Shown here piece by piece: positions 5,744 to 10,590 of a DNA stretch of 14,377 nucleotides. Position numbers and translations under genes: made by a program. Within the stretch, counting starts at the first letter, position 1. Each line of letters starts with the position of its first letter. Location of the stretch: the IMG/VR virus record IMGVR_UViG_2675903352_000015, positions 1 to 14,377 of that record; one strand, given 5' to 3'. The notes beneath the pieces were generated by a model, which saw only the letters and a list, made by a program, of their open reading frames with translations, made no database searches and was not told the DNA's origin. The stretch is from a virus. Lineage: Duplodnaviria; Heunggongvirae; Uroviricota; Caudoviricetes.

Positions 5744-5783
5744 AAGCCCTCCTGAAAATTACCTCATGACCAGAAATTAACAC

Positions 5784-6749
5784 TTACCCCCTGAAGCCCG
5801 GCGGAATTTCGTTATCCGGTTCAGAAATGTGATTCACGCAACGCTGTACAGGCGAACGCCCCAGACGAATAACCAGCTCATCCCATTTTTCGCGAAGCTT
5901 TGACGGGCTCATGACGTTTTTTACCCAGAATGGATCCCGCTGTACCCGACCAAACATTTCGCAAATTTGTCTGTGAGTTCTGCCATCCAGCATCCGCATT
6001 GTGCGCACATCATTGGCCCATGCAGTCCAGTTTGGTTCTTTCGGTCGCATGATTTCGCCATCATCGCTGGCAGCCTGCTCGTAAAGACTCACGATTCGCC
6101 CCCAGATCCACTGCGCACACGCCAAATCTTCCTGGCTGCCCCACTGGCGTTTTTTCGCACTGAACACAACAGCGTCAGGGTGTCGGGTTAAAAAATCCTG
6201 TTCAGCCGTCTGCCTGTCCGGTTGCGAAGATTCCGGACGAGAAGTGTTTTTATTCTCTGTAGTAATCTCTGTTGTATTCTCTGTAAGATCATCGGGCCAT
6301 TTTGACCCGATGACATTGGGTCGTTTTGAACCAATGGAGCGTGTCATTTTGGCTCCTTCCATCGTGTCATTTTGACCTGATGGAGCGGCGCATTTTGACA
6401 TGATGGATTCGCTCACTTTGCCACCATCTAAAAGCTCGCTCTCGTAATTAATCGTGTAAAAATTAGTCATATCACGCTTTGATTTGTTGAGCTTTTCACA
6501 ACGCAAAAGCCCCAGCGTTTTCAGACTTGCAAATGCGCGTTTTAACGTTGACTCTGACCAGAAAGGGAACTGTTCCAGCCATTGTTCTGTTGTGTTATAA
6601 ATCCAGCGAACACCATCACATTCCATGCCGGAACCGGTATCTCTCAACCAGTAATGCAGCTGCTGCAACACGATGGCTTCGTTCAGACCAATTTTCATCG
6701 CCAGCTGCGTGTTTATAACCAGCGGGCGTTCAGCAAAAAGGAGCTTCAT
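5784..6749 (-). CDS. phage replication initiation protein (lambda O / Rac YdaU-like replisome organiser)
   Basis: 321 aa; strong SD (GGGGGAGGGG) before ATG 6749; follows the Cro-like and YdaT-like genes in the rightward-operon position; an iteron array and AT-rich repeats lie inside the central linker of the gene, as in lambda O/ori. Confidence 0.65.
   Translation of the reverse strand: MKLLFAERPLVINTQLAMKIGLNEAIVLQQLHYWLRDTGSGMECDGVRWIYNTTEQWLEQFPFWSESTLKRAFASLKTLGLLRCEKLNKSKRDMTNFYTINYESELLDGGKVSESIMSKCAAPSGQNDTMEGAKMTRSIGSKRPNVIGSKWPDDLTENTTEITTENKNTSRPESSQPDRQTAEQDFLTRHPDAVVFSAKKRQWGSQEDLACAQWIWGRIVSLYEQAASDDGEIMRPKEPNWTAWANDVRTMRMLDGRTHRQICEMFGRVQRDPFWVKNVMSPSKLREKWDELVIRLGRSPVQRCVNHISEPDNEIPPGFRG
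6250..6430. repeat. putative replication origin: six 23-bp-spaced iterons plus three tandem 12-bp AT-rich repeats
   Basis: TTTTG cores at 6300, 6324, 6347, 6370, 6393 and (CTTTG) 6416, unit consensus about GTCATTTTGACCnGATGGAG; adjacent TATTCTCTGTAG-like 12-mers with TCTCTGT at 6254, 6266, 6278. Confidence 0.6.
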
Positions 6750-8945: not shown

Positions 8946-9353
8946 ATGGAATTTAAAGATTTACCAAAAGAAATCCAGACAATTGCTGCAACGACTCTCG
9001 GTGATAGTCTGGTGAAAATTGACCCGGCATACACCAAAAAAGAAACCATCGATAATATGGTTCGTAATGTGCGCAATGCTTTTTCTGGGCTATATGGTTC
9101 TGATAATCAAAAGCAGGAAAGCGATGTTAATAAACGGGTAATTTCTGTTTGCGTGAATGGCCATGTTCTTTCATCAATCAAAACAGAAACGGCGACAGTC
9201 TTCGATTGCCTTTGCATTGTACAGAGCCTTGTTGATGCCCTGTTTCGTTCAGTGAATTTAGAAAATGATGCAAATCTGCGAGGGCGCACAATAGCACATC
9301 CATATGCACATACTTTAGGCTCTGTGGATATCAAAGATCCCACAAATCTTTAA
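8946..9353 (+). CDS. hypothetical protein (135 aa) in an AT-rich accessory insert
   Basis: ATG 8946 with GAGG 8 nt upstream; visibly AT-richer than flanking prophage genes; no transmembrane segment or known motif recognised. Confidence 0.55.
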   Translation: MEFKDLPKEIQTIAATTLGDSLVKIDPAYTKKETIDNMVRNVRNAFSGLYGSDNQKQESDVNKRVISVCVNGHVLSSIKTETATVFDCLCIVQSLVDALFRSVNLENDANLRGRTIAHPYAHTLGSVDIKDPTNL

Positions 9354-9564
9354 TGAAATAGTTAACGCGAATTGTACTTGCTCTTTCAGTTGCTTTCAGA
9401 ATACGCGTTGAAACTGCTGGCGGTAATTTGGTATTCCATTTATTAAAATCATGCCCGGGAAAGTACTCTTCGAAAATACTTTTAACTGCAGACTCGCCTA
9501 TTGAAATGCTGCTTACCATGCGATTTTGATAAAGGCATTTAGCAATAAGAGTTGATTTTAACAT
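9331..9564 (-). CDS. hypothetical protein (77 aa), convergent with and overlapping the 3' end of the 135-aa gene
   Basis: ATG 9564..9562 preceded by AGGAGG (spacer GTGA) on the minus strand; AT-rich; 3' end overlaps the convergent gene by 23 bp. Confidence 0.45.
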   Translation of the reverse strand: MLKSTLIAKCLYQNRMVSSISIGESAVKSIFEEYFPGHDFNKWNTKLPPAVSTRILKATERASTIRVNYFIKDLWDL

Positions 9565-9957
9565 TCACCCTCCTGAGGGTTGGTAATTAAGGAGTTCTCC
9601 ACGGGTGAAATGGAGTGCGTGCGCCGGACACGGGTGAACATCCGGCACTGACAGTTTACTGAAAGGATATTTCTCTGAAAAGTCAGAGCATAACGCGAAA
9701 GCGCACGGCGAGGTTGCTGGTTCATAGATAGCCTGTCGTTAAATTTTCGTCGACCGTGCGCTTCCGGTTGTGGCACTCCGCGAAATGGCGCGGCGGTAAG
9801 TATGGCGGGGTTATTCCTTCCCCCGTTGAGGACACCGGGTTGTCAGGTTGACCATACGCTTAAGTGACAACCCCGCTGCAACGCCCTCTGTTATCAATTT
9901 TCTGTGACGTTTGGCGGCATCTGTTTGCCCATGAACTGATGTCCGCCCTTTTTAAAG

Positions 9958-10105
9958 TGAATTTTGTGATGCGGTGAATGCGGCTAAGCGCACGCGGAAC
10001 AGTTAAAGCTAAAAACAGTGTTATGGGTGGATTCTCTGTATCCGGCGTTAATTGTTAACTGGTTAACGTCACCTGGAGGCACCAGGCACCGCATCACAAA
10101 ATTCA
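9958..10105. repeat. 19-bp perfect inverted repeat pair flanking a 110-bp segment
   Basis: TGAATTTTGTGATGCGGTG at 9958..9976 and its exact reverse complement at 10087..10105; right arm ends 4 nt before the GAGGA SD of the ORF starting at 10123; internal segment contains GTTAAC-tg-GTTAAC. Confidence 0.85.
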
Positions 10106-10122
10106 TTGTTGAGGACGCGATA

Positions 10123-10311
10123 ATGGAAACGTTATTACCAAACGTTAATACGTCTGAAGGTTGTTTTGAAATTGGTGTCACTATCAGCAATCAGATATTT
10201 ACTGAAGATGCCATTAATAAAAGAAAACACGAACAGGAACTGCTAAATAAAATATGCATTGTTTCGATGCTGGCCCGTTTACGTCTGATGCAAACAGGAT
10301 GCAGGCAATGA
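10123..10311 (+). CDS. hypothetical small protein (62 aa) in the kil-region position
   Basis: ATG 10123 with GAGGA 7 nt upstream; the ORF-track GTG 10018 start would read through the inverted-repeat arm and is less likely. Confidence 0.4.
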   Translation: METLLPNVNTSEGCFEIGVTISNQIFTEDAINKRKHEQELLNKICIVSMLARLRLMQTGCRQ

Positions 10312-10406
10312 ATACGGCATTTGTACTCGTTCTGACTGTTTTTTTGTTTCTGGTGAACCGATTGATCTTGTTATTGACATACATGACTCAATGGAAGAAT
10401 GCATGA
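10308..10406 (+). CDS. possible hydrophobic micro-protein (32 aa, single predicted TM helix)
   Basis: ATG 10308 overlaps the upstream TGA (ATGA coupling); MNTAFVLVLTVFLFLVNRLILLLTYMTQWKNA. Below the length cut-off of the ORF track. Confidence 0.3.
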   Translation: MNTAFVLVLTVFLFLVNRLILLLTYMTQWKNA

Positions 10407-10498
10407 CTGCCGCGGCAGAGCAAAAAATTCCCGGGAACTGTTATCCTGTCGACAAAATTATTCGCATGAACAATAACGAAATCCCGGCAGGCCTTTAA
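10403..10498 (+). CDS. possible micro-ORF (31 aa; 35 aa if started at ATG 10391)
   Basis: ATG 10403 overlaps the preceding TGA (second consecutive ATGA coupling); MTAAAEQKIPGNCYPVDKIIRMNNNEIPAGL. Confidence 0.25.
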   Translation: MTAAAEQKIPGNCYPVDKIIRMNNNEIPAGL

Positions 10499-10590
10499 AA
10501 CAGCCCCATAATAAATATCCGGTTTTATTTTTATATGTCAGCAATGGCAGGGATTTGTCCACCCTTAAATCTGTAATGAGGTAAAACAAA

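Follow-up and report, generated by a model that had tools for sequence, protein, structure and literature searches.

The window (the whole stretch of viral DNA analysed, 14,377 nucleotides) contained a block at 9565-10122 that lies directly upstream of dicB. Positions 9578-10125 shared 95% identity with the ydfC-dicF-dicB intergenic region of the cryptic Qin prophage of E. coli K-12, in which dicF is annotated as an ncRNA. Both dicF and the dicBF operon of this prophage were reportedly described by Faubladier et al. in 1990. The window and the orthologous K-12 Qin dicBF region (Balasubramanian et al., 2016, PMC5069750; Ragunathan et al., 2023, PMC10448788) shared the order of leader, DicF, spacer, and dicB, as well as the terminator and both of the helices that are discussed below as RNase III sites. 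The genes ydfB and ydfC were located upstream of the block according to the RefSeq annotation of a 99.8% identical strain, which places nothing within 9565-10122. In contrast to K-12 Qin, the window harbored, between ydfC and the leader, two additional genes, a 135-aa gene (+ strand) and a convergent 77-aa gene (- strand), neither of whose proteins matched any family. Homology to K-12 Qin began at approximately 9578, which marks the insertion junction (9577/9578), and relatives fell into two groups, matching either from 9565 or from 9578. Neither DicF nor dicB was recognised in the earlier note on this DNA. The features of the block and its borders were as follows.

9565-9577, - strand: translation start region of the 77-aa gene (ATG at 9564, AGGAGG-type Shine-Dalgarno)
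9578-9688, + strand: leader module A1, kept in K-12 and in many phage contigs
9696-9766, + strand: hairpin I2, arms 9696-9708 and 9754-9766 (repeat search and MFE fold)
9776-9880, + strand: domain B, a conserved part of the long DicF precursor (conservation and compensatory changes)
9899-9953, + strand: DicF sRNA, variant allele (Rfam RF00039, K-12 alignment, and position)
9956-10107, + strand: STnc100/PasD-family structured RNA, 152 nt (Rfam, own covariance model, and covariation)
9956-9976 and 10087-10107, + strand: closing helix P1 of that RNA, 21 bp, which is the inverted repeat of the earlier note
9967/9968, + strand: predicted RNase III cleavage within the 5' arm of helix P1, giving the 3' end of 72-nt DicF (K-12 orthologue and counting)
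9977-9979, + strand: junction AAU
9980-9995, + strand: helix P2 with a bulged A
10000-10006, + strand: segment X (CAGUUAA), followed by a variable region
10046-10051 and 10063-10068, + strand: stem of P4, the loop of which (UUAACUG, 10055-10061) is predicted to pair with X
10072-10086, + strand: P5 (CCUGG-AGGCA-CCAGG)
10110-10114, + strand: Shine-Dalgarno GAGGA, directly before dicB
10123-10311, + strand: dicB, 62 aa (Pfam DicB PF05358, E 4e-39, full length; RefSeq annotation in the 99.8% identical strain)

The block had been flagged as GC-rich non-coding DNA with nested inverted and direct repeats, including a perfect 19-bp inverted repeat. A repeat search recovered this pair (9958-9976/10087-10105, 19 nt, 100% complementary, arms 110 nt apart), and the addition of flanking pairs extended it to a helix of 21 consecutive Watson-Crick pairs. 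When 9565-10122 was shuffled 300 times with dinucleotides preserved, the longest perfect inverted repeat had a mean length of 7.4 nt and was at most 13 nt long. Inverted 8-mer matches numbered 22, against 2.6 ± 2.1 expected, and 12 of the 22 were inside the 19-mer; individual 8-nt repeat pairs were at chance level. The shorter inverted repeats and the GTTAAC-tg-GTTAAC motif (10054-10067) were present as described, and the search identified the arms of I2 (13 nt, 92%) and a 9-nt pair, I6 (9837-9845/9865-9873). The direct repeat CACGGGTGAA was also found, with copies at 9600-9609 and 9629-9638, but it is not significant alone because 12% of the shuffles contained a direct repeat of at least 10 nt. 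The block is GC-rich only in comparison with its flanks (52-56% GC in 9600-9999 versus 38-41% in both flanks).

The claim that the block carries no convincing open reading frame was borne out. A minus-strand 72-aa ORF (9558-9776) had no Pfam match, hidden coding by this ORF or by a GTG-extended dicB frame (10018-10311) was unsupported, and close relatives were separated by 1-nt indels across 9565-10122. One of the options that had been listed, a structured regulatory RNA, agreed with the results. Folding gave -217 kcal/mol for 9575-10135 (z = -5.8 versus shuffles) and z = -5.7 for 9899-10135, with the inverted repeat forming a closing helix. No Rfam family reached its gathering score anywhere in the window; however, a permissive scan returned two abutting, full-length, significant + strand matches, DicF (9899-9948) and STnc100 (9946-10155). 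The block is not protein-coding, and the inverted repeat belongs to the second of these RNAs.

DicF aligned column by column with the annotated dicF of K-12, with ydfC upstream and dicB downstream. It consists of a single-stranded 5' seed, a terminator hairpin (9913-9947, -17.3 kcal/mol), and a run of five U residues (9949-9953), and therefore has the GC-rich hairpin and U run of a rho-independent terminator. A simple terminator scanner called no terminator in the segment and missed that of DicF because the stem is interrupted. The match to Rfam RF00039 covered model positions 1-52 of 52 with 41.1 bits (E 2.2e-7), which is under the gathering score of 48 because the stem-loop is a variant. Compared with K-12 dicF, the terminator stem-loop is a different allele, found in 290 of 5426 complete E. 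coli genomes, and the 5' seed is shorter by 1 nt, a deletion that occurred in only two of these genomes. A crude test of complementarity to the ftsZ start region (K-12 ftsZ, -60 to +45) gave a best duplex of -28.8 kcal/mol for this allele, which is not stronger than that of the shuffled sRNA (-31.9 ± 4.5); in the same test the K-12 allele, which pairs across the ribosome-binding site, gave -38.5 versus -34.1 ± 4.2. Other targets of DicF rely on the conserved 5' seed. A pairing of the seed with dicB codons (ACGUUUGG, 9907-9914, with CCAAACGU, 10138-10145) was considered and rejected, as this 8-nt match is at chance level.

The spacer between DicF and dicB matched Rfam STnc100 (RF02076) with 39 bits (E 8e-7), under the gathering score of 47, and the STnc100 consensus structure closes with exactly the inverted-repeat helix. 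A covariance model (R1) was constructed on 37 diverse relatives, none of them of the dicB type. R1 gave a single match in the window, at 9967-10096, with 73.3 bits and an E of about 4.5e-17, and it also matched K-12 and phages P1 and P7. Membership in the STnc100/PasD family is therefore firm despite the sub-threshold Rfam score. When viral contigs were scanned for the signature CACCNGGAGGCACCNGGCAC, more than 120 loci with 108 distinct cores were recovered. The family layout comprises P1 (inner GGUG/CACC), the AAU junction, P2, a variable hairpin, P4, and P5 (CCNGG-AGGCA-CCNGG). P2, with its bulged A, occurs as CCCCC..GG-A-GGG or as GCGGC..GC-A-CGC, which is a fully compensatory swap. The RNA of the window shares with STnc100 and PasD the signatures GGUGAAU, P2 with a bulged A, CACCNGGAGGCACCNGGCACC, and a closing helix starting GGUG/CACC. 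It differs in its sub-threshold Rfam score, its P2 of the GCGGC..GCACGC type, its closing helix of 21 bp instead of the usual 7-10 bp, and its operon leader position directly before dicB.

Helices P1 and P2 covaried among the 37 relatives. Cells changed on both sides numbered 84 versus 35.6 ± 4.7 in shuffles, and involved seven of ten P1 pairs and three of five P2 pairs. Furthermore, 90% of cells were paired, versus 37-49% with a slid partner, and the covariation score was 0.302 versus 0.129 ± 0.012 when shuffled and at most 0.159 with a slid partner. The segment after P2 was complementary to the P4 loop in most members, with 117 different helix sequences, and a run of at least 7 nt was present in 65% of elements with their own partner versus 26% with the partner of another element. 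The pairing between X and the P4 loop, as predicted from these comparisons, is a covarying pseudoknot of the family. In the window it joins CAGUUAA to UUAACUG, which explains the GTTAAC-tg-GTTAAC motif. The family was spread over Enterobacterales, often in tandem arrays of three to six copies and frequently adjoining tRNA genes. The covarying pseudoknot and the tandem arrays suggest a structure-dependent function of the family. STnc100 and PasD have been reported as prophage sRNAs that are abundant, associate with Hfq, and have partners in RIL-seq (bioRxiv 10.64898/2026.05.13.724894), and the function of STnc100 has been described as unclear (PMC12370729).

Two other identities were tried and rejected. 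The C4 antisense RNA of phages P1 and P7 (Rfam RF01695) gave no match at E up to 10 in 9400-10300, and the similarity to P7 and D6 that was seen belongs to another STnc100-type element of the ban operon and not to c4. A relationship of domain B or of the STnc100-type element to the put antiterminator RNA of HK022, putL or putR, was tried by blastn and R1 against the HK022 immunity region (27.6-30.1 kb), a sequence-level and therefore weak test, in which both searches were blank.

The closing helix sets the spacer RNA apart from most of its relatives. P1 measured 7-10 bp in most members, and lengths of approximately 20 bp were confined to a few lineages. Of these, the dicB type has 21 bp; the kilR type has 10 bp, a one-base bulge, and approximately 12 bp, and its ORF matches NCBIfam NF008465 ("FtsZ inhibitor protein"). 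A third type, located upstream of 36-aa hydrophobic ORFs, has a perfect helix of 20-22 bp with an unrelated outer sequence. RNase III requires a helix of about two turns, and the 21 consecutive pairs in the window provide uninterrupted double-stranded RNA of about that length. In K-12, a 72-nt DicF species is made by RNase III (PMC5069750, PMC9438474). Counted from the DicF 5' end by this size, as quoted in secondary sources, the cut falls at 9967 in the window, nucleotide 12 of the 21-nt 5' arm. A comparison of wild-type and delta-rnc transcriptomes listed a "dicF-dicB" site at 1649470, marked as known (PMC5371410, Table S1), approximately 17 nt downstream of the mapped 72-nt end. From the 2-nt stagger of RNase III, a second cut would be expected near 10097/10098 in the 3' arm; it would create a 5' end of the dicB mRNA with a 5' UTR of approximately 25 nt, starting approximately 12 nt before the Shine-Dalgarno.

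Natural variants of the arms indicated the strand on which the helix acts. C/U changes retained G-C or G.U pairs only in the + strand RNA, whereas on the other strand the same changes would give A.C mismatches and break the symmetry of the DNA; this speaks for an RNA helix on the operon strand. The K-12 helix contains two G.U pairs at positions that are G-C in the window, and the repeat is thus perfect here. Taken together with the K-12 mapping, the inverted repeat is likely to be a helix that is cut by RNase III and separates DicF from the dicB message. Known RNase III signals in phage polycistronic transcripts include the lambda N-leader and sib sites and the T7 R1.1-type sites. In these, too, a helix of about two turns lies in an early transcript, and when it is cut, functional RNAs come apart and a neighbouring message acquires a new 5' or 3' end. 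Unlike these signals, the helix in the window closes a conserved multi-helix, pseudoknotted RNA and not a simple hairpin, and the upstream product is a trans-acting sRNA. The elaborate core (P2, pseudoknot, P4, and P5) is not explained by a plain RNase III site, because the closing helix of most members is too short for RNase III.

The core could also be the actual product, with 9956-10107 acting mainly as a free-standing, trans-acting, Hfq-dependent sRNA; the RNase III helix would then serve only as a signal for cutting this sRNA out of the operon transcript. The kinship with STnc100 and PasD agrees with this reading, and cutting of both P1 arms would free a discrete RNA of approximately 130 nt. 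However, no such species was reported for the K-12 dicF-dicB spacer in the DicF literature examined, and STnc100 itself is described as unclear in function. An excised sRNA as the main role is rather doubtful; it is compatible with a separating cut between DicF and dicB and the two do not exclude each other.

Upstream of DicF, the leader begins with module A1, whose first two hairpin stems (9597-9601/9611-9615 and 9623-9628/9641-9646) hold the direct repeat CACGGGUGAA in their loops. The third A1 hairpin (CUCUGA-AAAG-UCAGAG, 9673-9688) showed one compensatory change in relatives (CUCUGA/UCAGAG versus CCCUGA/UCAGGG). In some phages, A1 was split from the rest of the leader by inserted genes. 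Hairpin I2 follows. A 190-nt DicF precursor of K-12 owes its 5' end to RNase III, the mature 5' end is produced by RNase E, and no internal promoter was found (PMC10448788). Counting 190 nt, a size likewise quoted in secondary sources, back from the DicF 3' end leads into the 3' arm of I2. On the K-12 segment this end lies at 2746-2751, inside the arm 2739-2751 that corresponds to 9754-9766 of the window, and the cleavage coordinate 813/814 of PMC10448788 fits this mapping only if transcription starts approximately 75 nt upstream of ydfA. I2 is probably the RNase III site that gives the 5' end of the ~190-nt precursor. Covariation does not bear on this assignment, since the stem never varied informatively among the relatives compared.

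The left part of the leader, at ~9565-9700, might in addition provide a promoter or regulatory region for the 77-aa gene on the minus strand. That gene starts at 9564, and its promoter must therefore lie to the right, near 9565-9700. However, the sequence of this part is 95% conserved in K-12, which lacks the gene, and a promoter scan found no sigma-70-like match on the minus strand within 9565-9800. The sole minus-strand sigma-70-like match in the segment (10058-10031) is approximately 470 nt away from the gene, and the two promoter-like sites reported by the scanner were at chance level (1.4 expected). We regard such a double use as improbable. As the role of the whole block, for which promoter and activator sites of this gene had been offered, the reading fails because K-12 retains the block without the gene.

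Domain B lies between I2 and DicF and was found upstream of every DicF-type sRNA collected. It contains two hairpins, Hb (~9806-9826) and the 9-bp Hc (9837-9845/9865-9873), as well as a candidate pseudoknot between GUAUGG (9801-9806) and CCAUAC (9853-9858). Compensatory changes in relatives were seen in Hb (CGGGG/CCCCG, CUGGG/CCCAG, and CAGGUG/CACCUG), in Hc (U-A to C-G), and in the candidate pseudoknot (U-A, C-G, and U.G), and the evidence from them is modest because diversity was low and the search pattern fixed part of the loop. A helix Ha (CCGCG/CGCGG, 9779-9794) and a pairing of GCGGCGG with CCGCUGC were discarded, since they carried uncompensated changes in relatives or could not form in phage P1. 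A permissive Rfam scan gave no family match for domain B. In phages P1 and P7 the domain was also present, directly behind the Pban promoter that C1 controls; there the P1 annotation reads "dicF-like region". The leader of the P1/P7 ban operon shares domain B with the window at 77-82% identity, with compensatory changes, and an STnc100-type element lies further down the same operon. In contrast to the window, the domain in P1 and P7 comes directly after the promoter and is followed by another terminator hairpin, tRNA genes, and tci/ter genes, and there is no dicB. Domain B may be a second, unnamed structured RNA that accompanies DicF-type sRNAs and the P1/P7 ban leader.

Two readings at the level of DNA had also been put forward. 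Two identical 19-bp half-sites, 110 bp apart and immediately upstream of a gene, could be the paired sites of a DNA-looping regulator of dicB. This is very improbable, as the arm variants break the symmetry of the DNA and retain pairing in the + strand RNA through G.U, and the arms enclose a covarying RNA fold. Moreover, two other lineages have closing helices of like length (20-22 bp) and unrelated sequence, which is expected of an RNA helix and not of a site recognised by a protein. The terminal inverted repeats and short length (148-152 bp) of the repeat-bounded segment recall a MITE-like mobile insertion, a reading with next to no probability given the lack of a target-site duplication (flanks ...CCCTTTTTAA and GTTGAGGACG..., that is, ..TTTTTAA before and GTTGAGG after the segment), the fixed syntenic position between the DicF terminator and dicB or kilR, the identity of the inner 7-10 bp of the "TIR" with the conserved closing helix of an RNA family whose covarying helix the arms extend and of which most members have no long arms, and the proposed comparison of relatives, in which the dicF-dicB loci seen included no clean empty site, one relative with its 5' half replaced by unrelated sequence indicated recombination and not excision, and copies at many unrelated sites were not found, with a DicF-type terminator preceding, and dicB, kilR, or another small ORF following, each of the long-armed copies seen, all of them in prophage early regions. 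The block is not a DNA-level element.

In K-12, transcription of the dicBF operon, partial termination at the DicF terminator, and processing by RNases III and E yield species of 190, 72, and 53 nt (PMC5069750, PMC9438474, PMC10448788). A corresponding pathway can be proposed for the window. Transcription would start from a repressor-controlled early-left promoter upstream of the ydfA/B/C homologues and read through into the block and its structured leader; this read-through is an assumption because the 135-aa gene and the convergent 77-aa gene separate ydfC from the leader. RNase III would cut the hairpin at 9696-9766 to give the ~190-nt precursor, and RNase E would trim the precursor to the DicF 5' end at approximately 9899. 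Some transcription would end at the intrinsic terminator of DicF (hairpin and U5, to 9953). In read-through transcripts, the next 152 nt would fold as the STnc100/PasD-type multi-helix RNA with its 21-bp closing helix, and RNase III would cut this helix at ~9967 in the 5' arm and presumably at ~10098 in the 3' arm, releasing 72-nt DicF and the dicB mRNA. Since cleavage and read-through would produce the dicB mRNA, we propose that expression of the toxic DicB is tied to both. We infer the exact cut positions in this strain, as well as an effect of the cuts on dicB translation or stability.

These results suggest that 9578-10122 is, very likely, the untranslated centre of the transcript of the prophage dicBF operon, a chain of RNA modules that is read on the + strand, with the processing proposed above. 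This locus and the way it is processed belong to textbook knowledge of DicF, and in this respect the finding is already known; as a dicF locus with known processing signals, the block requires no new mechanism. The assignment of the dicF-dicB spacer to the STnc100 family, the pseudoknot of this family, and the long-helix subclass before cell-division inhibitors are modest, incremental points that were obtained by computation. All three were absent from the literature searched, and neither DicF nor dicB is mentioned in the 2026 Pas preprint.

Both the DicF allele and the spacer RNA lie under the Rfam gathering scores. RefSeq annotates neither of them in hundreds of complete E. coli genomes, among which are O157 and O121 strains, and readers who work from sequence alone will go on flagging them. 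The RNase III site mapped by experiment in K-12 is here tied to the closing helix of an STnc100/PasD-type RNA, which gives the family its first concrete processing context. Tentatively, the STnc100/PasD element may be more than a base-pairing sRNA, namely a compact, pseudoknotted module that is widespread in Enterobacterales prophages and could serve as a scaffold for processing, stability, protein binding, or catalysis. The long-helix subclass, with a closing helix that would have grown to about 20 bp more than once, would then form an RNase III gate immediately before small toxic genes (dicB, kilR, and the 36-aa hydrophobic ORFs), and domain B might be a second RNA of this kind.

Throughout the STnc100/PasD family, the segment that follows hairpin P2 pairs with the loop of hairpin P4 as a covarying pseudoknot, which is represented by 117 different helix sequences among the collected relative loci (L003-L300). 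In the window, this helix is formed by positions 10000-10006 with 10055-10061. The pseudoknot is absent from the Rfam consensus of STnc100; the published consensus in a preprint on prophage sRNAs was built with RNAalifold (bioRxiv 10.64898/2026.05.13.724894). STnc100-type elements also formed tandem arrays, each with three to six diverged copies and often adjoined by tRNA genes, and the elements were found across many Enterobacterales genera, in phages, prophages, and a Pantoea plasmid. The arrays were located as follows, by relative locus:

L013, 2265-3380
L101, 4349-5513
L029, 342-1038
L270, 948-1990
L298, 6399-7835

A closing helix P1 of about 20 bp was observed in at least three STnc100-type lineages, with examples in L011 (about 5760-5960), L036 (about 9740-9930), L095 (minus strand), and L082, and was in every case located directly 5' of a small gene. 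These genes comprised dicB, a gene for a KilR-type FtsZ inhibitor (NF008465), hydrophobic ORFs of 36 aa, and one ORF of 94 aa. A DicF-like terminator was likewise present 5' of the kilR-type STnc100 copy. Two kilR-type relatives, L011 (11213-11391) and L052 (9891-10069), harbored the RalA antitoxin RNA (RF02694) and are therefore Rac-like prophages.

DicF of the window (9899-9953) differed from that of the E. coli K-12 Qin prophage in its terminator stem-loop. The window-type allele was detected in 290 of the 5426 complete E. coli genomes, O157:H7 and O121 among them, and it was left without annotation in the carrier genomes. In addition, the 5' seed of the window DicF lacked one G (UUUCUGUGAC vs. 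UUUCUGGUGAC), and this exact version was common to only 2 of the 5426 genomes. The predicted duplex between the window DicF and the ftsZ start region was no stronger than that formed by shuffled sRNA sequence. Codons 6-8 of dicB contained CCAAACGU (10138-10145), the complement of the DicF seed ACGUUUGG (9907-9914), inside a tandem repeat, AAACGUUAUUAC / AAACGUUAAUAC (10127-10151); complementarity of this length (8 nt) was at chance level in this region. The ydfD-like (DUF1482) gene 3' of dicB (about 10308-10500; 7009-7199 in L001) was annotated as a frameshifted pseudogene in the RefSeq strain with 99.8% identity.

Upstream, the following features were identified in the window, the last of them also in phages P1 (L123) and P7 (L124):

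8946-9564, two-gene insertion between ydfC and the DicF leader, absent from K-12 Qin: ORFs of 135 aa (+ strand) and 77 aa (- strand), convergent, with a 23-bp overlap
9597-9646, two copies of CACGGGUGAA, each the loop of its own small hairpin, in leader module A1
9776-9880, domain B, conserved and structured (3001-3095 in P1; 1592-1689 in P7)

Neither inserted ORF was matched in Pfam or NCBIfam, and operon transcription would read the 77-aa gene antisense. In some phages, 600-800 bp of inserted genes separated module A1 from the DicF leader. The two A1 hairpins share a loop motif and could form a protein-binding pair. Domain B of the window had no match among Rfam families. It was found 5' of all DicF-type sRNAs in the collected set, and in P1 and P7 it immediately followed the Pban promoter; it contained compensatory changes and a candidate pseudoknot.
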